Below are positions 1 to 12,641 of a stretch of 64,000 nt of DNA, piece after piece. Positions within the stretch are counted from its first letter, which is position 1; every line of letters starts with the position of its first letter. Below the pieces are notes generated by a model. The model was not told the DNA's origin. It was given only the letters and a program-made list of their open reading frames with translations, and searched no databases. A program made the translations under genes and the position numbers. Source of the stretch: Flavobacteriales bacterium. GTDB taxonomy: Bacteria > Bacteroidota > Bacteroidia > Flavobacteriales_F > PHOS-HE28. The stretch spans positions 7,055-71,054 of the forward strand of contig JBGAJW010000016.1 in the NCBI GenBank assembly GCA_044224725.1, given 5' to 3'.

Positions 1-776
1 TCAACAACCTCCTCATCGCTGATGCTGACGGCATCCGCACCATCACCATCAACCGACCCGATCAGCTCAACGCGCTGAACCGTGCCACCATCGCCGAACT
101 GGATCAAGCGCTGACCGAGGCCGATGCCGACAAGGGCGTGCGCGTGCTCATCATCACCGGTAGCGGCCCGAAGGCCTTCGTGGCCGGTGCCGACATCAAG
201 GAGTTCGCCCACTTCGCCGTGGAAGAAGGAAAGGCGCTCGCGGCCGATGGCCAGAAGAAGCTCTTCGACCATGCGGAGCGCATGAGCAAGCCCGTGATCG
301 CTGCGGTGAACGGCTTCGCGCTGGGTGGCGGACTGGAGCTGGCCATGAGCTGCCACATTCGCGTAGCGAGCGACAATGCGCGCATGGGGCTGCCGGAAGT
401 CTCGCTCGGTGTGATCCCCGGTTACGGCGGCACGCAGCGCTTGGCGCGACTGGTAGGCAAGGGAAAGGCCATGGAGATGATCTTCACCGCGGGCATGATC
501 AAAGCCGACGAGGCCCTGCAATGGGGACTGGTGAACCACGTTGTACCACAGGTCGATCTGCTGGCCAAGTGCAACGACCTGGCCGCCGCCATCATGAAGA
601 ACTCACCCACCGCCATCGCCGCCGCCATCCGCGCGGTGAACGCTGGTTATGAACCCGGAGCGGACGGCATGCAACGCGAGATCGAGGAGTTCGGCAAGTG
701 TTTCGGCACGTCTGATTTCAAGGAGGGGACGAGCGCGTTCATGGAGAAGAGGAAGGCGAACTTCACAGGGGCGTGA
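1..776 (+). CDS. Enoyl-CoA hydratase/isomerase (crotonase family), 5'-truncated by the window edge. The frame is open from nt 3 (NNLLIADADGIRTITINRPDQLNALN...).
   Basis: Crotonase motifs are present: oxyanion-hole region AAVNGFALGGGLELAMSCHIRVAS, plus ...GLPEVSLGVIPGYGGTQRL and MIFTAGMIKADEALQWGLVN. The ORF runs to the window start without a stop. Confidence 0.85.
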   Translation, partial: NNLLIADADGIRTITINRPDQLNALNRATIAELDQALTEADADKGVRVLIITGSGPKAFVAGADIKEFAHFAVEEGKALAADGQKKLFDHAERMSKPVIAAVNGFALGGGLELAMSCHIRVASDNARMGLPEVSLGVIPGYGGTQRLARLVGKGKAMEMIFTAGMIKADEALQWGLVNHVVPQVDLLAKCNDLAAAIMKNSPTAIAAAIRAVNAGYEPGADGMQREIEEFGKCFGTSDFKEGTSAFMEKRKANFTGA

Positions 777-1423
777 AAACCTGCTGGATCGACCGACTGG
801 CGACGCCACTTGGGGAGGTGACTTGTGAGCTACTATCTGAGCCACCCGTGGCTGAACGTAACACGGACCAGAGTGTCGCTACCATAGGAGGCTATACGAT
901 CAAGAGCGATCGACAAGCCTTACCGATGGATTGGAATAAGGGAAAGACTCAAGCGCCAGCACTTATCGACGGAGGTTGTTTCTGGCGCTGGGTTTTCATG
1001 CGTACCGGTCCCGGCGAAGCAGAGTTCATCATTCGCTGTGGCCTTAATGCGCACTCGGTGATCTACGACCCAGCGACAGGTGAAGACCTCGCAGCGGTCG
1101 AGTATTGTAAGAAGGAGCAGGTCCTTCACATCGGGACGGAGGATGACAAGTATTTGCGCTATCGCTCCAAGGATGTTTCCGGTGCCTTCCCCCTGCGGTT
1201 TGGAGAATTGCCTTTTGATAGATGGGAGGGCCTATTGGAGGATCTGATACAGCTCAGCGAACAAGGGATCCACCTCGCCGTTCCGAATTTGCGGATAGGA
1301 GAGACCATGTACTTCCATGTGATCGCGGCATATAAACGGACCAACCCTCAACAAGACATATCGACGTGGCTCGCTGTTGACAGGCGTAAAGCCGAACTTG
1401 ATTCATTCGCCCCCTGGCCATGA
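773..1423 (+). CDS. Hypothetical protein of 216 aa with no recognisable domain. It has a GTG start overlapping the upstream stop (GTGA) and lies in a lower-GC segment.
   Basis: Long ORF with normal protein-like composition. The 4-nt overlap with the crotonase stop and the ATGA overlap with the next gene suggest translational coupling. No signal peptide or known motif was recognised. Confidence 0.45.
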   Translation: MKTCWIDRLATPLGEVTCELLSEPPVAERNTDQSVATIGGYTIKSDRQALPMDWNKGKTQAPALIDGGCFWRWVFMRTGPGEAEFIIRCGLNAHSVIYDPATGEDLAAVEYCKKEQVLHIGTEDDKYLRYRSKDVSGAFPLRFGELPFDRWEGLLEDLIQLSEQGIHLAVPNLRIGETMYFHVIAAYKRTNPQQDISTWLAVDRRKAELDSFAPWP

Positions 1424-1809
1424 GCGCCCGCCACAAACTCGCCAGCCGAACGGCCATCTATGGACTCGGTGTTATCATGGCGCTCTTCGTGACCGGTTGT
1501 GGTCGACTGAACGATGATAGACTAGTGGGATGTTGGTGGAACGAAGTGCGACCTGATTACGATATCACAACGTTCTGCTTTCGGCCTGACGGAGATTGGA
1601 GCAGCTCAGGTCCTGACGAGTCGCCTATGCATGGCACGTACGAATTGAGTGGAGACCTCTTGCTTTGGCGTTGGATAGACTCCCGATATGGGCATGACAC
1701 CACTTTCCGTTGCATCATGCACTGGAGCGACGAAGATCACCTTCGTCTTGCGATGAAGCTCGACCCACGACCAGGAGTTGAATTCAATTGGGAGCGCCGT
1801 CCGAAATGA
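1420..1809 (+). CDS. Small predicted lipoprotein (129 aa). Its N-terminus is a diverged duplicate of the N-terminus of the downstream flippase.
   Basis: Signal peptide with lipobox (LFVTGC). The N-terminus MSARHKLASRTAIYGLGVIMA matches the flippase N-terminus MSVLRKLAGQTAIYGLSSIVA. There are ATGA overlaps at both ends. Confidence 0.5.
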   Translation: MSARHKLASRTAIYGLGVIMALFVTGCGRLNDDRLVGCWWNEVRPDYDITTFCFRPDGDWSSSGPDESPMHGTYELSGDLLLWRWIDSRYGHDTTFRCIMHWSDEDHLRLAMKLDPRPGVEFNWERRPK

Positions 1810-3317
1810 GCGTCCTCCGCAAACTCGCCGGGCAAACGGCCATCTACGGGCTGAGCAGCATCGTTGCGCGCTTTCTGAACTTCCTGCTGGTGCCGCTGTA
1901 CACGAGCAAAGGCGTGTTCGAGCCGGCGGACTATGGCGTGGTCACCGCGCTCTACTCGTGGACGGCCTTCCTCAACGTGGTACTCACCTTCGGCATGGAG
2001 ACGGCCTTCTTCCGCTTCTCCATGAACACGCCGTTGCAGCAGCAGAGCGACAACGGGCGAACGATCTACAGCACCGCCACCTATGCGCTGCTCCTCCCCG
2101 CGCTCGTCTTCATGGGCTTGGGCAGCTTGTTCTCCGGCTCCATCGCTGACGCATTGCACTTCCCCGCGTATGCCAGTTCCGTTCTGTTGCTCGTCCTGAT
2201 CATCGGCATCGATGCGCTGACCGCTATCCCCATGGCGCGGCTGCGCCAGCAAGGGAGGCCCTGGAAGTACGCGTTCATCAACATATTGAGCGTGGCGGTG
2301 AACGTGGGCCTCAGCGTGTTCTTCTTCCTGTACTGCATGAAGCGTTACAACGCCGGGGAAAGCACGCCGCTGATCGACCGCGTGTACGATCCGGCGTTCG
2401 GCGTGGGCTATGTGTTCGCCATCAACTTGGTGTCCACCGGGGTGAAATTGCTGGTGCTGCTTCCCGCGTGGCCATCGCCATCGCACTTCCAGAAACAACT
2501 GCTACGGGCCTTGGCCGCCTTCGGTCTGCCCTTGATGATCGCCGGTCTCGCGGGCATGGTGAACGAAACGGCGGACCGCATCATCCTCAAGTACCTGCTG
2601 CCCGCCGATGTCGCCAACGCGCAGATCGGTATCTATGGCGCATGCTACAAGCTGGCGATCCTGATCACGCTCTTCATCCAGGCCTTCCGCATGGGCGCGG
2701 AACCCTTCTTCTTCAGCCACGCGCGTGAGAAGAACAGCGGCGAGACCTTCGCGCGCATCATGAACCTGTTCGTGGCCGTGTGCATGGCGGCCTTCCTCTG
2801 CGTGATGCTCTTCATTGACCTGTTCAAGTGGTTCATCCCGAACCCGGCCTACCACGAAGGCCTACGCGTGGTGCCGATCCTCATGCTCGCGAATGTGTTC
2901 CTCGGCATCTACTACAACCAGAGCGTGTGGTACAAACTCACCAACAAGACCCGAGCCGGTGGGACCATCGCCGTCATCGGTGCCATCATCACGCTCGTGC
3001 TGTTGTTCTCGTTGATCCCGAGCATGGGGTACATGGGCGCGGCATGGGCTACCCTGGCCTGCTATGCGAGCATGGCGGCGATCAGCTACGTGTGGGGGCA
3101 GAAGCACTACCCGGTGCCATACAATGTTGGGCGCGTGCTCACTTACATGGCGGCGGGCGTTTTCATCTGGTGGAGCGCCGAGGCCTCGACCGCGATCAGC
3201 CTGACATTGCCCCACGGCGAGGCATTCAACTATGGTCTGAGAGCCGTCCTGTTGGCCGGGTTCGTCGGCGTCGTTTGGCGGAACGAACGGAGAACTTTGT
3301 CACCTTCGCATGGATGA
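1788..3317 (+). CDS. Polysaccharide biosynthesis protein / Wzx-like oligosaccharide flippase (multi-TM, MOP superfamily). The likely true start is the ATG at 1806.
   Basis: About 500 aa, highly hydrophobic, 12-14 predicted TM segments. N-terminus KLAGQTAIYGLSSIVARFLNFLLVPLYT is typical of Bacteroidota lipopolysaccharide/polysaccharide flippases. The 1806 ATG overlaps the upstream stop (ATGA). Confidence 0.75.
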   Translation: MGAPSEMSVLRKLAGQTAIYGLSSIVARFLNFLLVPLYTSKGVFEPADYGVVTALYSWTAFLNVVLTFGMETAFFRFSMNTPLQQQSDNGRTIYSTATYALLLPALVFMGLGSLFSGSIADALHFPAYASSVLLLVLIIGIDALTAIPMARLRQQGRPWKYAFINILSVAVNVGLSVFFFLYCMKRYNAGESTPLIDRVYDPAFGVGYVFAINLVSTGVKLLVLLPAWPSPSHFQKQLLRALAAFGLPLMIAGLAGMVNETADRIILKYLLPADVANAQIGIYGACYKLAILITLFIQAFRMGAEPFFFSHAREKNSGETFARIMNLFVAVCMAAFLCVMLFIDLFKWFIPNPAYHEGLRVVPILMLANVFLGIYYNQSVWYKLTNKTRAGGTIAVIGAIITLVLLFSLIPSMGYMGAAWATLACYASMAAISYVWGQKHYPVPYNVGRVLTYMAAGVFIWWSAEASTAISLTLPHGEAFNYGLRAVLLAGFVGVVWRNERRTLSPSHG

Positions 3318-3859
3318 GCGGCAACGACATCCAAGCCCTGGACGCGCAGCATCGCAAGCCCTTCCTGCGATGGGTGAAGCGCCGCTTCGGCATCTCTGAG
3401 GCTGATGCGCAGGATGTCTACCAGGAATCGGTGACGGCTTTCGCCCAGCGCGAAACGCAGAACGAGGGTGGCGAATTGGAGTGCCAGCCTTCGACTTTCC
3501 TGTACGCCATCGGCCGCAACCAGACGCTGAAGTTGATCCGCTCGCGCAAAGGAAACGAGAACAGCACCATCGAACTTGACTCAGCCGGTGGCCTGTTCGA
3601 ATTGCCGGAAGTAGAGTCGCTGTTCGACATGGAACATGCGCGTACCGTGGTCCGTGAAGGTCTCGCCCGACTCACCGAACGACAGCGCGAAGTGCTGCGC
3701 CTCTACTACTACGAGGAACGGTCCATGCAGGAGATCGCCACCGTCATGGGCTACAACAACGCGGATGTGGCGAAGAAGATGAAGTACGAGGGCCTCAAGA
3801 AACTGTCCACGTTGATCGTGCGGAGTTGCGCGATCCCGTTCTTTTTCCATGCGTTCTGA
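3314..3859 (+). CDS. RNA polymerase ECF-type sigma-70 factor (181 aa)
   Basis: Region 2 (FLRWVKRRFGISEADAQDVYQESVTAF) and region 4 (LTERQREVLRLYYYEERSMQEIATVMGYNNADVAKKMKYEGLKKL) are both present. The start ATG overlaps the flippase stop (ATGA). The longer ORF beginning at 2828 is an artefactual extension through the flippase 3' end. Confidence 0.85.
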   Translation: MSGNDIQALDAQHRKPFLRWVKRRFGISEADAQDVYQESVTAFAQRETQNEGGELECQPSTFLYAIGRNQTLKLIRSRKGNENSTIELDSAGGLFELPEVESLFDMEHARTVVREGLARLTERQREVLRLYYYEERSMQEIATVMGYNNADVAKKMKYEGLKKLSTLIVRSCAIPFFFHAF

Positions 3860-4577
3860 ACACGCCGATATCGAGCGCATCGAAGCGTATGTGGAAGGCC
3901 GCTTGAGCGATGCCGACCGCCGTGCGTTCGAGGAGCAGCTCGGAACGGACAGCGCGTTGGTGGATGAACTCCATGCCTACCGGGTTATGCGCAAGGCATT
4001 GGTGGATGTGTTCGCGGAAGAACATGAGCGTGCCACGCAGAATGGCAAAGTTGTGCGGTTGAACAACCCTCGAAAGAGCACTTGGCGATGGGCGGTGGCG
4101 GCGGCTGTTTTGCTACTGGCGGGTGCTGGTGCGCGGTACTTGCAGCATGCGAAGGAGTCCCTGCCTGAGCTGGCGGAGCGGTATGTGGTGCATGAATCTC
4201 CGCTGCCTGTGCTCATGTCCGGCCCGGCAGATCACCAGAACGTGCTGGACAAGTCGATGCAACTCTTTGGGGCTGGCCGGTACGATCAGGCCCTTGCTGA
4301 ACTCGAACGGTTACCGGCAAGCGACACGGTCGCGTTCTATGCGGGTCTGTGCGCGGTTGAACTCCATCAAGATCCTTCCACCCGTTTCCAATCGGTGATC
4401 GATGATGCAACGAGCGGCTATCATCCAAAGGCGCTCTATCACTTGATGCTCTGGCAACTGGAACACGATTGGCGAACAGATGCTGTCCACCTGCTCCAAG
4501 AGCAACTGCGCATCAGCGATCATCCGTATCGCCAGCAATTGGAGGCATTGGCTGCTGACAAGGCGCTGCTGCCCTGA
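3849..4577 (+). CDS. Anti-sigma factor: a single-pass membrane protein with a cytoplasmic N-terminal sigma-binding region and a periplasmic C-terminal domain
   Basis: It overlaps the sigma-factor stop by 11 nt. The N-terminus IERIEAYVEGRLSDADRRAFEEQL is typical of RskA/ChrR-type anti-sigma N-domains. One TM segment (WAVAAAVLLLAGAGA) is present. Confidence 0.6.
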   Translation: MRSEHADIERIEAYVEGRLSDADRRAFEEQLGTDSALVDELHAYRVMRKALVDVFAEEHERATQNGKVVRLNNPRKSTWRWAVAAAVLLLAGAGARYLQHAKESLPELAERYVVHESPLPVLMSGPADHQNVLDKSMQLFGAGRYDQALAELERLPASDTVAFYAGLCAVELHQDPSTRFQSVIDDATSGYHPKALYHLMLWQLEHDWRTDAVHLLQEQLRISDHPYRQQLEALAADKALLP

Positions 4578-4580
4578 GCG

Positions 4581-6968
4581 ATGTTCCAACGAACACCGTT
4601 CCCCGGCAAGGTGGTGTTGAGCTTCTTTCTGGCTGTTTGGTTCTGCGCACACAACACAGCCGTCCGCGCGCAGGCCGCATCCGTCTTGCAGCGCGCCGAA
4701 CAAGCCTTGTGCGATGGGGATGACCTCGGCGCGGAACGTTCCTTGATGAAGTTGTTGGCGGAACCAGGGCTTGAAGGCAGCGCGCGATTCGATGCGCTGA
4801 TGCTGATGGCGGAGATCCACTATCAACGATCTGCGCAGGAACAATTCTTGGCCGCTACCGAAAGCGCGGCCAAATTGCTGGGTCCACAGGACGGCCTTGA
4901 ACAGGAATCGTGGGCGCGCGTGGAAACCAACCGTTGCCGCCACGCGTTCTTCGCGATGCAGTACGAGCGTGCGATAGAACTCGGAGAGTCCGCGATAACC
5001 CGCTACCGACGCGCCCCTGACCGGTCGCACTGGAAGAATGCCTTCCGGATCCATCAAGCACTGGCGGCCTCGTACCGCATCGGCACGCCGGAACGGAAGG
5101 GGAAGGTCTTCGCGCACTTCGACACAGCCCTGGCGCTGGCCCATGCACGCACGGACCTCCTGCCCTACTGGGAAGCCGCGATCCAGCGAAGCCTTTCGAA
5201 CGCGGCCATGGACCGCATGCGAAAAGACAATCCAGACCATGTGAAGTGCGCCGACCTCTGCAGGCGCGCACAAACCCAGGCGCTGCGGATCATGGCGCGG
5301 AGCCACCCGAACAATCGGCTGGAGTGCGCGATGCTGATGAACCTGCACGGCTTGTACCTGGTTTACAACGGACAGCCGGACAGCTCCATGAAATGGTTGT
5401 CGAACGCACAGGATCTCATCTCGGAAGATGTGTGGCGCGCACGGGATGAGCGGTTCTTTCCGACCTGGCTCCTCACGCTGCGCTGGAAGGCCTTCGTATT
5501 CGAGGGCGAACCTTGGCGCTCGGATACCGCACTGCTCAATCGCTATTTGGATGAACTGCAAGCGGCGGAACCCTTGTTCACCCGCTATGCCGCCATGCAA
5601 GCCACCGCCAAAGGGCTGTTCACACAGGACCGGTACGACCGTTCACCTTTCCCATCAACACTGGCCGTTTGTCAGCGGCTGTGGGAGCTGACCTTGAATA
5701 CGAGCTACATCGACCATGCATTGCGCACAACGGAAAAAACACGAAGCGACGCATGGAACATAGCGCAGTCGCTTCGGAGTCGGCGAGATCTGATTCTTCC
5801 CGATCCGCCGACAGAAATGTTGTCCTCGATACGGCAGAAGATGGACCCGAACGAAGGCTTGCTGATTTGCGTGGACTATGGCTTGGCACAGGTTGGCCAT
5901 CGCGTTATCACCCTGACCGTGACCGTTGATTCCGTAGACTTCAACGAATGTGGATTCAACTATGACTGGTCCTGTGCATTGGACATGCCACAGCCGCTCG
6001 ATGCGATGAAAGAACGTCGTGCGCTCCACTTGCTATACGACTCGATCTACGCGCCGGCGAAGCACCTGTTGAATGATCGGATCACACGGCTGCGTGTGGT
6101 GAGCACGAACGAGCTTGCCAAGTTGAGTTTCGACGCGTTGCTGGCTGATACCGCTTCCGCTGACATCCGAAAATGTCATCCGCTGGTGGAAGAGCACGCC
6201 ATCAGCTATCCCTACTTCCTGTTGCCCTCGAGCGATGATGGACCCAGCTCCCCCCAACGCGACGGACTGTACTTGGCCCCGACGCGAGGATCAGGGGAAC
6301 TGACGGACTTGACCATGCTGCGCGAAGCCATGGCGTTTTGGCACGAAGGTGTTTTGCCTGGTGATCTGGATAGTTCAGTGACCGATGCGGCTGTCGCGAT
6401 GCAGCGCATGGAACAGACCGAATTCCTGGTGTGGGGTGGACACTGCGGCGGCAACATCTTCATACAGGATGAGCCTGTCAGCAGCTTCTCGACCTCCTTC
6501 ACGGACAGCGCCACGACCTTGTTGCCCAGCCAACTATTGAGTTTGCATCAAGCGCCTTCGTTCGTGGTGCATGCCTCCTGCCAGAGCGGCGTGTTCTATC
6601 CCTACGGCAGTAGCGGTAGCGTCTCGTTCGCCCGCGCCTTCCTGTTCGCCGGATCCCGCACCGTGGTGGCAGCGCAACATGTGGCCGATGAGCGATCCTC
6701 CATCCGGCTATTGGAGCATCTGATGGATGAACTCGCCGACGGACAACCGGCGGACCTTGCTCTTCAACACGCCAAGCTCGCCTACTTGCGAGAAGCCGCT
6801 TCCGCCGAAGACGCACGCCCCTTATACTGGGCCACTTGGCAGGTGTGGGGCGAATGCACTCCGCTGGTACCCGCTGATAAACCCCTACGCCCATGGCCGT
6901 GGCTGGGGGGTGGAGCAATCATTGTGCTTGCTGGAGCCCGCGCATTCCGGAAGCGCAGGAAAATTTGA
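4581..6968 (+). CDS. Secreted TPR-repeat CHAT-domain (caspase-like) protease with a C-terminal TM anchor
   Basis: N-terminal signal peptide, TPR-like helical N-terminal half, and a C-terminal CHAT domain. The catalytic His sits in LVWGGHCGG and the catalytic Cys in FVVHASCQSG. Motifs AGSRTVVAAQHVADE and PLYWATWQVWGE follow. A terminal hydrophobic stretch ends in RKRRKI. Confidence 0.75.
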   Translation: MFQRTPFPGKVVLSFFLAVWFCAHNTAVRAQAASVLQRAEQALCDGDDLGAERSLMKLLAEPGLEGSARFDALMLMAEIHYQRSAQEQFLAATESAAKLLGPQDGLEQESWARVETNRCRHAFFAMQYERAIELGESAITRYRRAPDRSHWKNAFRIHQALAASYRIGTPERKGKVFAHFDTALALAHARTDLLPYWEAAIQRSLSNAAMDRMRKDNPDHVKCADLCRRAQTQALRIMARSHPNNRLECAMLMNLHGLYLVYNGQPDSSMKWLSNAQDLISEDVWRARDERFFPTWLLTLRWKAFVFEGEPWRSDTALLNRYLDELQAAEPLFTRYAAMQATAKGLFTQDRYDRSPFPSTLAVCQRLWELTLNTSYIDHALRTTEKTRSDAWNIAQSLRSRRDLILPDPPTEMLSSIRQKMDPNEGLLICVDYGLAQVGHRVITLTVTVDSVDFNECGFNYDWSCALDMPQPLDAMKERRALHLLYDSIYAPAKHLLNDRITRLRVVSTNELAKLSFDALLADTASADIRKCHPLVEEHAISYPYFLLPSSDDGPSSPQRDGLYLAPTRGSGELTDLTMLREAMAFWHEGVLPGDLDSSVTDAAVAMQRMEQTEFLVWGGHCGGNIFIQDEPVSSFSTSFTDSATTLLPSQLLSLHQAPSFVVHASCQSGVFYPYGSSGSVSFARAFLFAGSRTVVAAQHVADERSSIRLLEHLMDELADGQPADLALQHAKLAYLREAASAEDARPLYWATWQVWGECTPLVPADKPLRPWPWLGGGAIIVLAGARAFRKRRKI

Positions 6969-7049
6969 TCGCATGGCGGGTTACCTCCTGCTCTGGATGG
7001 GTATCAAGCTGTGATACCCTTCCTCCGAACAAACTTGAACCCTTGACCC

Positions 7050-8282
7050 ATGCGCAACCTTTTCGCTCTGTCCGCACTGCTCTTCGCCGTAACCAACCTC
7101 CATGCTCAACCGCCGAATTATGTACCCACAGAAGGGCTCATGGGTTGGTGGCCATTCAGCGGGAACGCGAATGATGAGAGCGGGAATAGTCACCATGGAA
7201 TTTCGGTCGGAGCTACCCTCACAACAGACAGATGCGGGCAGCCCGCAAGTGCATACGCGTTCAACTCAAGTTACATTGAGGTACCGCCGATAGCGGCGAT
7301 CAATGGCATGGATGACTTCGCTTGGTCGGTATGGTTCATGATCGAGGGCAACGCAGCCGAAGAGAGACAGTACTTGGTCGGACGCGGCTGGGACTTCACG
7401 GAGGGCTTCAGCATTTGGCGAGGGAATGATGACCGCTTGGCTTTGATCGTGAACGGGTTCAACGGATTCCAACAATTGTCCGCGAGTCCTGCGGCTCCCA
7501 TCCAAGCGTGGCATCACTTCGTAGCCAATCGTGAGCAAGGTGTCGTCGGCTACTACATCGATGGAGTGCTCGATACGTCTTTCGCCTGCCCAGCGACTGT
7601 GCTCACAAGCACATGGCCAGACTCGCTGTATTTCGGAGCGCACAAGTGGTACAACCAACCGCCCGACTACTTCGAGTACTTCCTCAACGGCAAACTCGAT
7701 GACATCGGTCTTTGGAACCGCGCACTGACCTCTGATGAAATCCAAGCCCTCTACCTCACCGGTTGTGGCCCATGCATCAGCACAACGCCCGTGAGCTATT
7801 CCGGTCTTTCTGCGAGCTACACGACGCTCGACGCTGCTACAACACTTGTCGGAAGTCCGGTCGGTGGTGTCTTCATCGGCTCGGGCATGTCGGGCAGCAC
7901 CTTCGACCCATCCGCAGCAGGCGAAGGGACCCACGGCATCAGCTACACCTATTTGGATTCCAACAACTGCGTGAACACCTACAGCCTATGTACATCAGTG
8001 GTTATCGGAATGGGTCTTGAAGTTCCCCCCCGGACGATGGGGGGCGTTCGCGTTTTCCCGAACCCCAACGACGGCCAGTTCACGGTGGAAATGGAACTGC
8101 TGGGCTTGGTGTCCTTGCAGGTATTCGATGCACGCGGCCGACAAGTTCACAACGAAGTGTTCCAGGGCAACGGCAGCAAGACACAACGCATGCTGGACCT
8201 CTCTGGGCTGGCCAAGGGCGGTTACTCGGTAACCATGCAGAACGCCGGTGCGATGGTCACGCAGCAGGTGATCATTGAATGA
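7050..8282 (+). CDS. T9SS-secreted LamG/concanavalin-A-like jelly-roll lectin domain protein
   Basis: N-terminal signal peptide and a LamG-like core (GLMGWWPFSGNANDESGNSHHG...). The C-terminal roughly 80 aa (VFPNPNDGQFTVEM...GGYSVTMQNAGAMVTQQVII) has the T9SS type-A sorting domain signature. Confidence 0.7.
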   Translation: MRNLFALSALLFAVTNLHAQPPNYVPTEGLMGWWPFSGNANDESGNSHHGISVGATLTTDRCGQPASAYAFNSSYIEVPPIAAINGMDDFAWSVWFMIEGNAAEERQYLVGRGWDFTEGFSIWRGNDDRLALIVNGFNGFQQLSASPAAPIQAWHHFVANREQGVVGYYIDGVLDTSFACPATVLTSTWPDSLYFGAHKWYNQPPDYFEYFLNGKLDDIGLWNRALTSDEIQALYLTGCGPCISTTPVSYSGLSASYTTLDAATTLVGSPVGGVFIGSGMSGSTFDPSAAGEGTHGISYTYLDSNNCVNTYSLCTSVVIGMGLEVPPRTMGGVRVFPNPNDGQFTVEMELLGLVSLQVFDARGRQVHNEVFQGNGSKTQRMLDLSGLAKGGYSVTMQNAGAMVTQQVIIE

Positions 8283-8366
8283 CCTGCGAGAAGGTGGCGT
8301 CCCCTCCACGAGCGTGTTGGTCACGGGCGAGCATCACGTGCCGCAAGGACATGCACCTTTGCGGGC

Positions 8367-8831
8367 ATGAATGACTTCTCGACTGCGCTCGAAGTGACAT
8401 CAGTGAGGATCGTCAACAAAAGCAAACACTCGCTCCCCAACTACGCTACCGCCCACAGCGCCGGCATGGATCTCCGCGCCAACTTGGAAGCATCCATCAC
8501 TTTGGCCCCCGGCGAACGCGCCTTGGTGAAGACCGGCCTCTTCCTGGAACTCCCCGAAGGCACCGAAGCCCAAGTGCGCCCCCGCAGTGGGCTTGCCTTC
8601 AAACATGGCGTTACCGTGCTCAATGCGCCGGGCACCATCGATGCCGACTACCGCGGGGAGGTGGGCGTCATCCTCATCAACCACGGGCAGGAGCCTTTCG
8701 AGGTGAAGGATGGGGAACGCATTGCCCAGTTGGTCATCGCCCGGTACGAGCGCATCACCTTCACGGAAGTAGCTGACCTGTCGGTGTCAGAACGCGGGGC
8801 CGGGGGCTTCGGGCACACTGGAAGGAATTAG
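8367..8831 (+). CDS. dut: dUTP diphosphatase. The likely start is GTG 8394 or GTG 8403, giving about 143 aa.
   Basis: All Dut motifs are present: [51 protein letters not shown] and GFGHTG. Confidence 0.9.
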
Positions 8832-8850
8832 GCACCTTCGCGGCCAATTC

Positions 8851-8929
8851 TTCACCACAGAGGCACAGAGACACAGAGGACGGGCCGAGAACATTGAGCT
8901 TCTCCGTGCCTCCGTGTCTCTGTGGTGAA
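8851..8929. repeat. Long imperfect inverted repeat (12-bp perfect outer stem TTCACCACAGAG / CTCTGTGGTGAA plus a further imperfect inner stem of about 12 bp) between dut and the nucleotidyltransferase gene. It is a candidate terminator or attenuator.
   Basis: Read directly: ttcaccacagaggcacagagacacagagga ... ctccgtgcctccgtgtctctgtggtgaa. Confidence 0.45.
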
Positions 8930-8942
8930 CTTCAGACACGAA

Positions 8943-9950
8943 ATGAAGATCATCGTCCCCATGGCGGGCATGGGCAAGCGGATGCGTCCGCACACCCACA
9001 CCACCGCCAAGCCGCTGCTGCCCATCGCGGGCAAGCCCATCGTGCAACGCCTCGTGGAGGACCTGGCTGCCGTGGCCGGGGAACCCGTGGAGGAGGTCGC
9101 CTACATCGTTCACCCCAGCTTCGGCAAGAAGGTGGAGGATGAACTGGTCGGCATCGCGAAGGCCATCGGCAGCAAAGGCACCATCCACTACCAGAAGGAA
9201 GCGCTGGGCACGGCCCACGCCATCCTCTGCGCCGAACCCGCGCTCAACGGCCGCATCATCGTGGCCTTCGCGGACACGCTCTTCCGCGCTCAACTCAAGC
9301 TGGACAAGGACTGCGACGGCGTGATCTGGGTGAACAAGGTGGAGGACCCCAAGCCCTTCGGCGTGGTGAAGCTGGACGACAGCGGCATCATCACGGAGTT
9401 CGTGGAGAAGCCGCCGACCTTCGTGAGCGACCTGGCCATCATCGGCATCTACTACTTCGCCGATGGGGAGTACTTGCGCAGGGAGATGCAGTTCCTCATC
9501 GATAACGACATCAAGGACAAGGGCGAGTACCAGCTGACGAACGCCATGGAGAACATGAAGCGCAAAGGCGCGCGCTTCAAGGCCGGCAGCGTGGACGTGT
9601 GGATGGACTGCGGCAACAAGAACGCCATGGTGGACACCAACACCAAGGTGCTCGGCTTCCTGAAAGGCGACAAGAGCTTGGTGAGCGCTTCCCTGAAGAA
9701 GGAGAACAGCGTGGTGATCGAGCCCTGCTTCATCGGCGAGAACGTTTCGTTGACGAACAGCGTGGTGGGACCGAACGTTTCCATCGAGAGCGGCTCGGTG
9801 GTTGCTGGCAGCATTGTGAAGAATTCGATCCTGCGCGGCAACACGCGTGTACAGGACTGCGTGATGGACAACAGCATGATCGGCGAACGGGCACAAGTCA
9901 AAGGCCACGCGTTGGACGTCAGTATCAGCGACGACAGCACGATCGGCTGA
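8943..9950 (+). CDS. Sugar-phosphate nucleotidyltransferase with a C-terminal left-handed beta-helix (GlmU / mannose-1-P guanylyltransferase-like)
   Basis: N-terminus MKIIVPMAGMGKRMRPHTHTTAKPLLPIAGKPIVQ carries the G-x-G-x-R nucleotide-binding signature of NTP transferases. C-terminal hexapeptide-like repeats follow (VIEPCFIGENVSLTNSVVGPNVSIESGSVV). Confidence 0.75.
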   Translation: MKIIVPMAGMGKRMRPHTHTTAKPLLPIAGKPIVQRLVEDLAAVAGEPVEEVAYIVHPSFGKKVEDELVGIAKAIGSKGTIHYQKEALGTAHAILCAEPALNGRIIVAFADTLFRAQLKLDKDCDGVIWVNKVEDPKPFGVVKLDDSGIITEFVEKPPTFVSDLAIIGIYYFADGEYLRREMQFLIDNDIKDKGEYQLTNAMENMKRKGARFKAGSVDVWMDCGNKNAMVDTNTKVLGFLKGDKSLVSASLKKENSVVIEPCFIGENVSLTNSVVGPNVSIESGSVVAGSIVKNSILRGNTRVQDCVMDNSMIGERAQVKGHALDVSISDDSTIG

Positions 9951-9975
9951 CCTTTGTACCGCCCGTTCACGCGGG

Positions 9976-11754
9976 ATGAACCAGATGCGCTCCTTCTCCG
10001 CCTGCCTCTTTCTTCCGCTGCTGGCGGTGCTCATCGCGTGCGGCGGAGCGAAGCCCGTTGCCGAAAAACCCCGCGACCACGAAGGCGCAGAGGCCACTCA
10101 CGCCGTTGGCGGCAAGAACAAGCGTGCGTTGGTCATGCGCCTCTTCATGGAGGCCAACCAAGCCCGGTTGAAAGGTGAACTTCCCAAGGCGATCCAGCTC
10201 TTCGAAGCCACCTTGAAGGAGGACCCGCAGAACGCGGCCAGCATGTTCGAGCTGGCCAAGCTCTACAACCAGGCCCAGGCCCCCGAGGAGGCGCTCGCGC
10301 TGGCGAAACGCGCGGTGGCCACCGACAAGGAGAACATCTGGTACCGCTTCCTGCTCGCCGATATGAGCATGCAGAACAGCGACCTGGCCGGGGCCACCAA
10401 GGCCTACCAGGAGATCGTGGCCAAATGGCCCGACCGCTATGAGGTGTACTTCGGACTGGCGAACACGCTGGCGCAACAGAAGAAGATCCCCGAGGCCCGG
10501 CAGGTGTTCCGCGATCTGGAAAAGCGCACCGGCAGCAACGAGGAACTGGTGATGCGCGAGTACGACATGCTCGCCAACGCCGGTGAGACGGCCGCCGCGA
10601 GGGACCTGCTCAACGATGCCATCAAAAAGAACCCGGAACAGACGCAGTACTACGGCATGCTTGCCGAGGTCTACGAGTCCATGGGTGATACGGCCAAGGC
10701 GGAGGAGCTCTACCTGAAGGCCCTCGCGCTGGACCCGGACGACAGCATGACGCGCATCTCGCTCGCGCAGTTCTATTACAACGCGGGGCGCGCCACGGAA
10801 GGCTTCACGCACCTGAAGGAGGCCTTCGGCGATCCCGATCTGGACATCGATCCGAAGATGCAGTTGCTGCTCGGTTTCTATGAGATGAGCGCCAAGCCGG
10901 GCGGGGATGTTCCCGCCGACCTCGTGCAGCAGAGCCACTTCCTCATCGACGAGCTGAAAAAGGCCCATCCGCAGAGCGGCAAACCCTACAGCATCGAAGG
11001 CGACTTCTACACGCGGGAGGGCAAGATCGCCGAAGCACGCGATGCCTTCGCCAAGGCCGTCGAGTTCGACAAGGACCGCTTCCCCATCTGGTCGGCCTTG
11101 CTGCAATTGGACGCGCAGCTGAACGACTACACCGCGTTGGATGACCACGCGCAACATGCCATCGAGCTCTTCCCGACGCAGCCGGAGTTCTACCTGTACA
11201 AAGGCATCGCCGCCAGCCAGCTGAAGAAGAACGATGAAGCCATCGAGGCCCTCGTTACCGGACGTGACCTGGTGGTGGACAACAAGCCCCTTGAAGGCCA
11301 GTTCTGGACAAGCCTCGGCGACGCCTACAACGCGGCGAAGGAATTCGCGAAGAGCGATGCGGCCTACGACAAGGCGCTCGCCATCAACCCGGACGATGCG
11401 ACCGTCCTGAACAACTACGCCTACTACCTGAGCGAGCGCAACGCCGAACTGGAGAAGGCCGAGCGCATGAGCCGCAAGTGCAACGACCTGCAACCCGGCG
11501 TGGCGACCTACTTGGACACCTACGCCTGGATCTTCTACAAGCAAGGGAAGTTCAGTGAGGCGCGCACCTGGCAGGAAAAGGCCATCGCCAGCGGCGGCGA
11601 AAAGGAAGCCGTGCTCATCGAGCATTACGGCGATATCCTCTTCAAGCTGGGCGATACCGCCGGTGCGGTGGAGCAGTGGAAGAAAGCGAAGGACCTGGGC
11701 GGGGCGAGCGAGTTGATCGGACGAAAGGTCACCGAAGGCAAGCTCATTGAATGA
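9976..11754 (+). CDS. Tetratricopeptide-repeat lipoprotein
   Basis: Signal peptide with lipobox (LIACGG). Multiple TPR-like helical pairs run through the 592 aa (AIQLFEATLKEDPQNAASMFELAKLY ... YAYYLSERNAELEKAERMSRKC). Confidence 0.7.
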   Translation: MNQMRSFSACLFLPLLAVLIACGGAKPVAEKPRDHEGAEATHAVGGKNKRALVMRLFMEANQARLKGELPKAIQLFEATLKEDPQNAASMFELAKLYNQAQAPEEALALAKRAVATDKENIWYRFLLADMSMQNSDLAGATKAYQEIVAKWPDRYEVYFGLANTLAQQKKIPEARQVFRDLEKRTGSNEELVMREYDMLANAGETAAARDLLNDAIKKNPEQTQYYGMLAEVYESMGDTAKAEELYLKALALDPDDSMTRISLAQFYYNAGRATEGFTHLKEAFGDPDLDIDPKMQLLLGFYEMSAKPGGDVPADLVQQSHFLIDELKKAHPQSGKPYSIEGDFYTREGKIAEARDAFAKAVEFDKDRFPIWSALLQLDAQLNDYTALDDHAQHAIELFPTQPEFYLYKGIAASQLKKNDEAIEALVTGRDLVVDNKPLEGQFWTSLGDAYNAAKEFAKSDAAYDKALAINPDDATVLNNYAYYLSERNAELEKAERMSRKCNDLQPGVATYLDTYAWIFYKQGKFSEARTWQEKAIASGGEKEAVLIEHYGDILFKLGDTAGAVEQWKKAKDLGGASELIGRKVTEGKLIE

Positions 11755-12641
11755 GGTGCCGCGCGCGGTTCCTCGGCTTCGGGCTGCTCGCATTTCTCGC
11801 GGCGTGCAAGCCCATCCGTGAAGTGATGCCGTTCCGCGGGGAGATCCCCGCACGTGGTCCGGAGAAGCTCGTTGAACGATTGGTCGCCGACCGCATCACC
11901 GATGTGCGGTACTATAGCGCGAAGGCCGGTGTGGAACTGAAAGACAGCACGGGCTCGAAGAACTTCAAGGCGCACATACGCTGCGCGATCGACAGTGCGG
12001 CCTGGATCAGCGTGGTCCCTGCGCTGGGCATCGAAGTGGCCCGGGCGCTGCTCACCACGGACTCGCTGAAGGTGATGGACAAGCTGGGCGACAAGTTCTG
12101 GGTGGGCGATACCGCCCAGGCCAAACGCAAATTCGGCCTGGCCCCGGACCTCTCGCTGTTCCAGCAAGCCCTGCTCGGCATGCCCATCGGTCTGGACCCC
12201 GAAGAGAAGTACAAGAGCGACCGGGAGGACGGCCAATACACCCTCACCAGCAAGGAGAAACGCCGCTTCCGCCGCGCGGCTGAAGACATGGCCATCGACG
12301 ACACGCTCGCGCACGATCACGACATGGGCGAGCGAAAGTTGGAGCGCACCCTGCGCCGGGCCGAGAAGAAGGACGCCATCGTTTTCAAGTACTGGTTGGA
12401 GCCCGACAGCTTCCGGGTGACCCGTGTACTGATCAGCGACCTGGCACACGATCAACAAGCGGACGTGCGTTATTCATCACGGACCACCGTGAATGGACAC
12501 TCCCTGCCCAGCCTCGTCAGCCTTTCTTTGTCGGACCCCGCGCGCCACGCCGAAGCCGTCTTCGAACTGGACCGCATCAGCCTCGATGGGCCCCTCCAAT
12601 TCAGCTTCAGGATCCCGGAGAAGTTCACTCCGATGGAATGA
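11751..12641 (+). CDS. DUF4292-like lipoprotein (LolB-like fold family)
   Basis: Lipoprotein signal (LLAFLAACKP). The gene order TPR protein, then DUF4292, then M23 peptidase is a conserved Bacteroidota arrangement. There is an ATGA overlap with the TPR gene. Confidence 0.5.
   Translation: MRCRARFLGFGLLAFLAACKPIREVMPFRGEIPARGPEKLVERLVADRITDVRYYSAKAGVELKDSTGSKNFKAHIRCAIDSAAWISVVPALGIEVARALLTTDSLKVMDKLGDKFWVGDTAQAKRKFGLAPDLSLFQQALLGMPIGLDPEEKYKSDREDGQYTLTSKEKRRFRRAAEDMAIDDTLAHDHDMGERKLERTLRRAEKKDAIVFKYWLEPDSFRVTRVLISDLAHDQQADVRYSSRTTVNGHSLPSLVSLSLSDPARHAEAVFELDRISLDGPLQFSFRIPEKFTPME

Follow-up and report, generated by a model that had tools for sequence, protein, structure and literature searches.

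The stretch of DNA considered here (the window) comprises 64,000 nucleotides from a Flavobacteriales bacterium (GenBank assembly GCA_044224725.1, contig JBGAJW010000016.1, positions 7,055 to 71,054). It carries, on its forward strand, three tightly packed genes: one for an extracytoplasmic function (ECF; group IV) sigma factor of 181 amino acids (3314..3859), one for a single-pass anti-sigma factor of 242 amino acids (3849..4577) and one for a 795-amino-acid protein (4581..6968) predicted to be an exported, membrane-anchored, caspase-like protease that joins a tetratricopeptide repeat (TPR)-like region to a CHAT domain. These three genes very probably function together. With a confidence that falls a little short of even, we read the tethered periplasmic CHAT protein as an in-trans site-1 protease for the linker of the anti-sigma factor, whose cut would be followed by intramembrane cleavage and release of the sigma factor. 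The binding of sigma to anti-sigma, every proteolytic step, the signal and the pairing of the sigma factor with a promoter are all things that we infer.

The 795-residue protein is, by profile, catalytic dyad and fold, a CHAT-domain peptidase of the caspase/separase type, and its activity is predicted on these grounds. The Pfam CHAT profile (PF12770) matches residues 480-757 with E=1.7e-19 and 70.8 bits against a cutoff of 24, covering 287 of the 289 profile positions. This bears out the CHAT domain that had been assigned when the stretch was examined from its letters alone (hereafter the sequence-only reading). The same reading had placed a TPR array at the N-terminus, a claim of which the architecture stands and the family match does not: the region folds as an alpha-solenoid by AlphaFold2 (AF2) and Foldseek, but the Pfam TPR match is not significant (E=0.07). 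In the AF2 model (predicted local distance difference test score, pLDDT, 84.6; predicted template-modelling score, pTM, 0.82) an alpha-solenoid spans residues 9-420, an alpha/beta domain residues 425-757 and a terminal helix residues 772-794. The TPR-like solenoid, degenerate in sequence, is placed at residues 31-420 (4671..5840) and the caspase-fold CHAT domain at residues 425-757 (5853..6851). Foldseek matches the model over its full length to separase, Csx29/TPR-CHAT and DdvA (probability 1.0), and the solenoid also to the TPR regions of LGN, separase and Csx29. A search of Protein Data Bank sequences with the CHAT family profile returned nothing at E<=1, so the kinship to separase, Csx29 and DdvA is visible at the level of the fold only.

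The catalytic residues are His621 (codon 6441-6443, in the motif GGHCGG) and Cys667 (codon 6579-6581, in HASCQSG), with both codons checked against the DNA. Both are invariant in 15 family members of 37-90% identity, and in an alignment with 13 distant CHATs, DdvA-like fusions among them, they coincide with a His and a Cys that are invariant there too. The dyad, whose loss in orthologs the sequence-only reading had named as a refutation, is thus kept. A second invariant cysteine, C622, adjoins the catalytic histidine in CHATs of the window type (GGHCGG; 6441-6446), where a sister clade has HLGTHxE. The periplasm being oxidising, this residue might take part in redox chemistry or regulation.

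Both ends of the protein point to export and tethering. Residues 1-30 (4581..4670) form a predicted signal peptide with n-, h- and c-regions and a predicted cleavage site between VRA and QA. Every complete family member begins with a basic stretch, followed by a hydrophobic core and an Ala-Gln junction, as do the CHATs of about 1075 amino acids typified by P0022, and the A-Q signal-peptidase I junction fits the Bacteroidetes Q-rule (PMC5837995). At the other end, 14 residues past the end of the CHAT domain in the AF2 model, lies a C-terminal transmembrane (TM) anchor with a basic tail (...RAFRKRRKI; residues 772-794, 6894..6962), identified from the AF2 helix and conservation; a hydrophobic helix followed by Arg/Lys closes all full-length relatives. 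The signal peptide and the anchor were called from hydropathy, charge and conservation. Since the positive charges at both ends would lie on the cytoplasmic side, we predict that most of the TPR-CHAT protein lies in the periplasm, tethered to the membrane, which is the topology that the sequence-only reading had proposed. Two other kinds of attachment were considered and rejected. For a GlyGly-CTERM/PEP-CTERM sorting signal at the C-terminus there is no NCBIfam match and no conserved signature before the helix, and without such a match the C-terminus is read as a plain anchor; for a lipoprotein, modified at the Cys at position 22, a lipobox is missing and relatives do not keep that Cys.

Exported CHATs appear to be common, if uncharacterised: a hydropathy heuristic finds signal-like N-termini in about 27 of 37 generic TPR-CHAT homologs. 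These homologs speak against the premise of the sequence-only reading that CHAT proteases normally act inside the cell, and so does DdvA of Myxococcus xanthus, reported in 2024 as a transmembrane anti-sigma factor with a periplasmic TPR-CHAT region and a His-Cys dyad (PMC11506125).

The sigma gene is what it had been taken for. The 181-residue protein is an ECF (group IV) sigma-70 factor: Pfam Sigma70_r2 (residues 13-79) and Sigma70_r4 (residues 113-152) both match, its only regions are sigma-2 and sigma-4, and it passes the TIGR02937 (sigma70-ECF) cutoff of 42.9 bits with a score of 61.2. Matches to NCBIfam sigma subfamilies all fall far below their cutoffs. The second protein, held to be single-pass, does have one TM helix by hydropathy and AF2 (residues 78-99, 4080..4145; hydropathy peak at residues 82-98, AF2 helix at 78-99), which divides it into a predicted cytoplasmic and a predicted periplasmic part. 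Its assignment as an anti-sigma factor draws on the AF2 model, on hydropathy and on weak profile scores (Pfam zf-HC2, E=3e-3 and 17.9 bits against a cutoff of 22.2; an NCBIfam anti-sigma model, 2e-6, under the cutoff). There is no cysteine in residues 1-167, and the HxxxCxxC zinc motif occurs in 0 of 120 members of the family; with no Cys in its N-terminal domain, this is not a zinc-binding anti-sigma factor (ZAS). The AF2 model (pLDDT 87.8) shows three N-terminal helices, the TM helix, a linker in extended form and a TPR domain of three repeats, and Foldseek found no fold match of the protein to any solved anti-sigma domain. The periplasmic TPR domain (residues 127-236, 4227..4556; AF2 pLDDT above 90) matches the peptide-binding TPR domains of CHIP, YbgF and SycD in Foldseek, with probability 1.0 and target-normalised template-modelling scores of 0.65-0.75. 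The family is large: an exhaustive hidden Markov model (HMM) search recovered 1061 representatives (50% identity clusters) at E<=1e-30.

The junctions of the three genes are tight, as the sequence-only reading had stated and as both the listing of open reading frames (ORFs) and a reading of the junctions bear out. The anti-sigma ATG at 3849 gives an 11-nucleotide overlap with the end of the sigma gene, and the CHAT gene starts (ATG at 4581) 3 nucleotides past the anti-sigma stop (4575-4577). Upstream, the sigma ATG at 3314 shares ATGA with the TGA (3314-3317) of a Wzx-like polysaccharide flippase gene (Polysacc_synt; 1788..3317; Pfam PF01943, E=5.6e-13), and this overlap is kept in all window-type loci (L002, L006 and L007 among them). 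The overlap suggests that export of a surface polysaccharide may be co-transcribed with the signalling module.

The linker that joins the TM helix of the anti-sigma factor to its TPR domain is extended and non-helical over residues 112-126 in the AF2 model. This linker holds the juxtamembrane motif LPVLMS (residues 119-124, 4203..4220), part of the most conserved periplasmic feature of the anti-sigma factor, whose family consensus is DPGLPVPMSA and which reads ESPLPVLMSG (residues 116-125) in the window. Across 54 diverse sequences L119 never varies, and conservation at P120, V121 and M123 reaches 90% or more. The core LP[VIL]xM is found in 111 of 119 homologs, 17-27 residues (median 19) past the TM helix, and an unbiased search broadens the motif to DPGLxxxM[SG]. 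The cuts reported for Craspase CHAT proteases follow a Met or a Leu (PMC11506125), which makes M123 an attractive candidate for the P1 residue. From this pattern of conservation we propose LPVLMS as a candidate cleavage or recognition site.

That the sigma, anti-sigma and CHAT genes form a unit can be judged from where else they occur. The window-type CHAT family is small (14 clusters, all from metagenome-assembled genomes of Flavobacteriales), and in L001-L003, L006 and L007 the block of flippase, sigma, anti-sigma and CHAT genes, followed by a gene for a LamG-domain protein secreted by the type IX secretion system (T9SS), has the same overlaps while its flanks vary; the LamG/T9SS gene is kept downstream in L002, L003 and L006. 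Inside this family alone such conservation could be synteny. The adjacency would then be inherited without any functional coupling, and it is true that this narrow family shares a whole neighbourhood (enoyl-CoA hydratase, flippase ... dUTPase, M23 peptidase). Recurrence of the trio in unrelated contexts and in different gene orders effectively refutes that explanation, to which we attach a very slight probability.

The recurrence takes several forms. The distant CHATs P0022, P0017 and P0045, each with a signal peptide and a C-terminal anchor, each stand beside an ECF sigma gene and a gene for a single-pass protein of 220-245 amino acids, in unrelated contexts and with varying gene order. In L008 the sigma and anti-sigma factors are full-length homologs of the window proteins, at 31% and 25% identity respectively. 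A scan of metagenomes by anti-sigma alignment, followed by an ORF, BLAST and HMM pass, gave 32 loci, 30 of them with enough downstream DNA to be informative. The sigma gene lies directly upstream of the anti-sigma gene in nearly all 32, the CHAT gene starts 0-4 nucleotides past the anti-sigma stop in 23 of the 30, and all full-length CHATs among these loci carry a signal peptide and a C-terminal anchor. Anti-sigma-linked CHATs fall into two clades, namely the window type (about 790 amino acids, degenerate TPRs) and a type of about 1075 amino acids, which has significant Pfam TPR_12 matches and a CHAT match at 1e-56. Pollutibacter soli (L043), a cultured member of the Chitinophagaceae, has the trio as well, as do L044 and L008, each time in different surroundings. 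Co-conservation of sigma, anti-sigma and CHAT across Bacteroidota, which the sequence-only reading had made a test of its proposal, is therefore found both in the metagenomes and in a cultured species.

Other exported CHATs delimit this association. The nearest CHATs outside the family, P0015 (which has a hydrophobic segment near its C-terminus) and P0023, are not beside an ECF sigma gene, so the association with sigma factors is specific to a subset of exported, anchored CHATs. In L004 (3455-7790) a near-outgroup exported TPR-CHAT gene, preceded by a small TPR protein and without an ECF sigma, overlaps a Peptidase_S8 (subtilase) gene; this context recalls those described for ECF54. On two high-GC metagenome contigs, L009 (5547-6260) and L010 (2646-3302), anchored exported TPR-CHATs accompany an unrelated anti-sigma factor of the ZAS type, which carries the zinc motif HxxxCxxC and has a periplasmic domain, about 100 amino acids long, that is rich in beta structure. 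The gene order is different there, and in L010 a BTRD1-repeat protein is encoded between the anti-sigma factor and the CHAT. Finally, the window-type CHAT profile also matches fusions of zf-HC2, TPR and CHAT domains encoded beside a sigma gene (P0036, P0037). Together with DdvA, these fusions of an anti-sigma factor to a TPR-CHAT region point to a physical partnership of the two window proteins.

A candidate output of the module lies immediately downstream. An 81-nucleotide spacer separates the CHAT stop from the next gene (7050..8282), and within it, at 6979..7007 on the forward strand, is a promoter-like element of two parts, GGTTAC-N15-GGTATCAA. Over the 64 kb of the window it has a single match, against 0.00-0.02 expected, and each related locus checked likewise has one, placed where the CHAT gene ends and LamG has yet to begin. 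All window-type loci share GGTTAC-N15-GGTAT[CG]AA, with a spacer of constant length and variable sequence (alignment A5). We regard the element as a putative target promoter of the ECF sigma factor. The gene that follows encodes a secreted protein with a LamG/ConA-like lectin fold (Pfam Laminin_G_3, 2.5e-21) and a C-terminal T9SS sorting domain (Por_Secre_tail PF18962, 7.6e-11 and 42.6 bits against a cutoff of 27; TIGR04183, 34.2 against a cutoff of 23), and its N-terminus ends ...LHA before QPP. By its type-A sorting domain and signal peptide the protein is a T9SS cargo, and its gene is the probable output gene.

In the sister clade a related bipartite element, TTCAC-N14-19-CGAT[AG][TG], stands upstream of the sigma gene and often back-to-back on the other strand, before genes for beta-helix and T9SS-sorting-domain proteins. 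In 135 kb there are 25 occurrences, where shuffled sequence would give 1.1, in a count whose pattern was derived from those same sequences. The GGTTAC and TTCAC elements may be cognate ECF promoters, and the local regulon would then consist of T9SS-secreted surface proteins. The TTCAC motif is absent from the window except for one chance-like match at position 640, and the P. soli locus L043 yielded no TTCAC-N-CGATAT. No autoregulatory promoter element was found upstream of the window sigma gene, so the operon is probably read through from the flippase gene and not autoregulated. The sister clade also has a second conserved element, C[GCT]TATTATCG, about 90 nucleotides downstream of TTCAC..CGAT, in the leader that immediately precedes the sigma reading frame (L026 5369-5378, L041 5369-5378, L031 5372-5381, L032 1316-1325 and others), for which Rfam gives no match.

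Put together, these elements suggest the following sequence of events. The N-terminal helical domain of the anti-sigma factor would hold the ECF sigma factor at the inner membrane, and its periplasmic part would present an extended linker of about 27 residues with the DPGLPVxMS motif, followed by a small TPR domain of the peptide-binding type. The TPR-CHAT protein would be exported by Sec and lose its signal peptide, and its C-terminal helix would keep it tethered to the inner membrane. As the CHAT domain ends about 14 residues from the membrane, the caspase-like domain would sit at the height of the anti-sigma linker. One of the TPR arrays would probably sense a protein or peptide in the periplasm, and this cue would activate the CHAT domain (step 1), which as the site-1 protease would cut the linker, possibly after the conserved M123 (step 2). 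The remaining stub of about 25 residues would become a substrate of an intramembrane site-2 protease (step 3), and the freed sigma factor would transcribe the T9SS-secreted, LamG lectin-like gene from GGTTAC-N15-GGTATCAA (step 4). A stub of this length resembles that left of RseA after cleavage by DegS.

The CHAT protein could instead be a co-transcribed output, an effector acting on other substrates such as T9SS cargo, the envelope or foreign proteins, with the anti-sigma factor cut by an unlinked site-1 protease. The sequence-only reading, too, had named a surface substrate next to the anti-sigma factor as what CHAT might cleave to gate ECF signalling, and such a target may be the real one. 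In the sister clade the ECF-type promoter precedes the sigma, anti-sigma and CHAT genes together, which would have the CHAT induced with the regulon; some motif-bearing relatives of the anti-sigma factor have no adjacent CHAT; and many exported TPR-CHATs are not beside a sigma gene (L004, L005). However, the adjacency of 0-4 nucleotides holds in many unrelated contexts, CHATs also pair with a second, unrelated type of anti-sigma factor (L009, L010), the fusions represented by DdvA, P0036 and P0037 favour a physical partnership, and the promoter-like element of the window family follows the CHAT gene instead of preceding the sigma gene. On balance we consider an effector role unlikely, while granting it some weight.

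A further alternative is that the TPR-CHAT protein does not cleave the anti-sigma factor and works as a co-sensor or guard in the manner of RseB, binding the TPR domain or linker of the anti-sigma factor and gating another protease; any catalysis would then be self-processing. In the models two TPR arrays would face each other in the periplasm. DdvA offers a parallel in that its bulky TPR-CHAT region sterically blocks RseP, to which the protein becomes exposed once that region is removed (PMC11506125). The His/Cys dyad, invariant in distant clades, is hard to explain without catalysis, and we judge a purely guarding role to be distinctly improbable. Pseudoproteases usually lose their catalytic dyad.

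Several observations count against an in-trans site-1 role for the CHAT protein. Seven of the 30 informative anti-sigma loci (L016-L018, L020, L021, L036 and L037) have no adjacent CHAT gene, and five of these seven (L016-L018, L020 and L021, the anti-sigma factor of L021 being the same as that of L020) keep LPVxMS, so the motif may serve another protease or a structural role. (The motif is missing from L036, whose anti-sigma factor is the same as that of L037.) The linker motif was itself one search pattern of the metagenome scan, which introduces an ascertainment bias, and the co-localisation counts cover 30 loci out of a family with about 1000 representatives. The promoter motifs were derived post hoc, and the ECF-type promoter before the whole operon of the sister clade makes the CHAT an induced product there as well. 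Lastly, in DdvA itself, self-cleavage of the TM-proximal linker on a signal is a proposed site-1 step before RseP that is still to be validated (PMC11506125).

Downstream of the LamG gene, the window carries a large TPR lipoprotein-like gene (9976-11754) and a DUF4292 gene (11751-12641), both syntenic downstream in relatives, where they are followed by an M23 peptidase gene; none of these genes appears to be related to the module. Toxin-antitoxin pairs (ParDE, HigBA, HicB, PIN) are inserted around the five-gene block at variable positions and never within it (L002 3337-3863 and 12043-12634; L003 6156-7121; L006 10306-10961; L007 2761-3299). Rfam found no RNA family in positions 1-12000 of the window or in three related loci. 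No cas genes adjoin the sigma/anti-sigma/CHAT module. A role as a defence system was considered and rejected, as a PADLOC search gave no match for four proteins of the locus and the neighbours are a flippase gene and a LamG/T9SS-cargo gene.

In a broader sense, and more tentatively than for the cleavage of the anti-sigma factor, the window may exemplify an undescribed, large class of Bacteroidota modules in which a tethered periplasmic caspase-like protease acts in trans at site 1, cuts DPGLPVxMS between M and S and thereby switches on T9SS-secreted surface proteins. We found no description of a split sigma/anti-sigma/exported-CHAT module in the literature on CHAT proteases and ECF sigma factors, of which our coverage is incomplete. 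What is new here is the split, two-polypeptide form, the conserved DPGLPVxMS linker motif, which lies some 20 residues out from the TM helix, and the conserved ECF-type promoter-like element before the LamG/T9SS gene. Were the proposal to hold, this would be the first demonstrable case of a caspase-fold protease starting a cascade of regulated intramembrane proteolysis (RIP), and a separable two-protein counterpart of DdvA. Caspase-like proteases would also be tied to ECF sigma control in three ways: the cytoplasmic Craspase, the fused DdvA and the split periplasmic form. In addition, the module may point to a regulatory input for the expression of T9SS cargo.

Among known systems, DdvA is the closest, and by analogy the module appears to work like it. 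In both, an ECF sigma factor is under a single-pass anti-sigma factor, a TPR-CHAT region with a His-Cys dyad lies on the periplasmic side (in the window, by prediction), an extended linker separates the TM helix from the periplasmic domain, and the CHAT domain is proposed to act at site 1 ahead of RseP. The 795-residue model matches the DdvA structure 8rot in Foldseek (E=5e-9). Unlike in DdvA, the anti-sigma factor and the TPR-CHAT protein are here two polypeptides, the CHAT with its own signal peptide and C-terminal anchor, and the anti-sigma factor has no zinc motif and a small TPR domain of its own. The host belongs to Bacteroidota, not Myxococcota, and the neighbours encode T9SS cargo and not a cyclic-oligonucleotide-based antiphage signalling system (CBASS) or CRISPR. 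According to the authors of the DdvA study, fusions of its kind occur in Myxococcota and a single Comamonas only (PMC11506125). Strictly taken, the module falls outside the DdvA family, since it lacks both the defining fusion and the zinc motif. Because DdvA has protease and substrate on one chain, the split form makes the idea of a first cut by CHAT testable with separate proteins, in a setting that is widespread in Bacteroidota and offers a cultured host (Pollutibacter soli), a candidate cut motif and a candidate reporter promoter.

A second parallel is the type III-E Craspase. The sequence-only reading had cited Craspase without its link to sigma factors, yet its TPR-CHAT protease, Csx29, cleaves Csx30, which inhibits the ECF-like CASP-sigma (PMC10028731). 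Both systems would have a TPR-CHAT protease acting on an inhibitor of an ECF-like sigma factor, and the folds match (Foldseek E about 4e-11). Craspase, in contrast, is cytoplasmic, is activated by the RNA-guided Cas7-11 and has no membrane step. Genes for Cas7-11/gRAMP, Csx30 and Csx31 do not adjoin the window CHAT; those for the sigma factor, the anti-sigma factor, the flippase and the LamG protein do.

The proposed cascade also resembles classical RIP, as in DegS/RseP acting on RseA and PrsW/RasP acting on RsiW, where a periplasmic site-1 cut near the membrane is followed by intramembrane site-2 cleavage. It would differ in that the proposed site-1 enzyme is an operon-encoded, caspase-fold cysteine protease, not a serine protease or metalloprotease. 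As for ECF54, genes for CHAT proteins, subtilases or carboxypeptidases have been noted near sigma factors of this type, and the group is described as having no anti-sigma factor, with proteolysis thought to act on the sigma factor itself (PMC8999054). The window module differs from it in having a canonical membrane anti-sigma factor.

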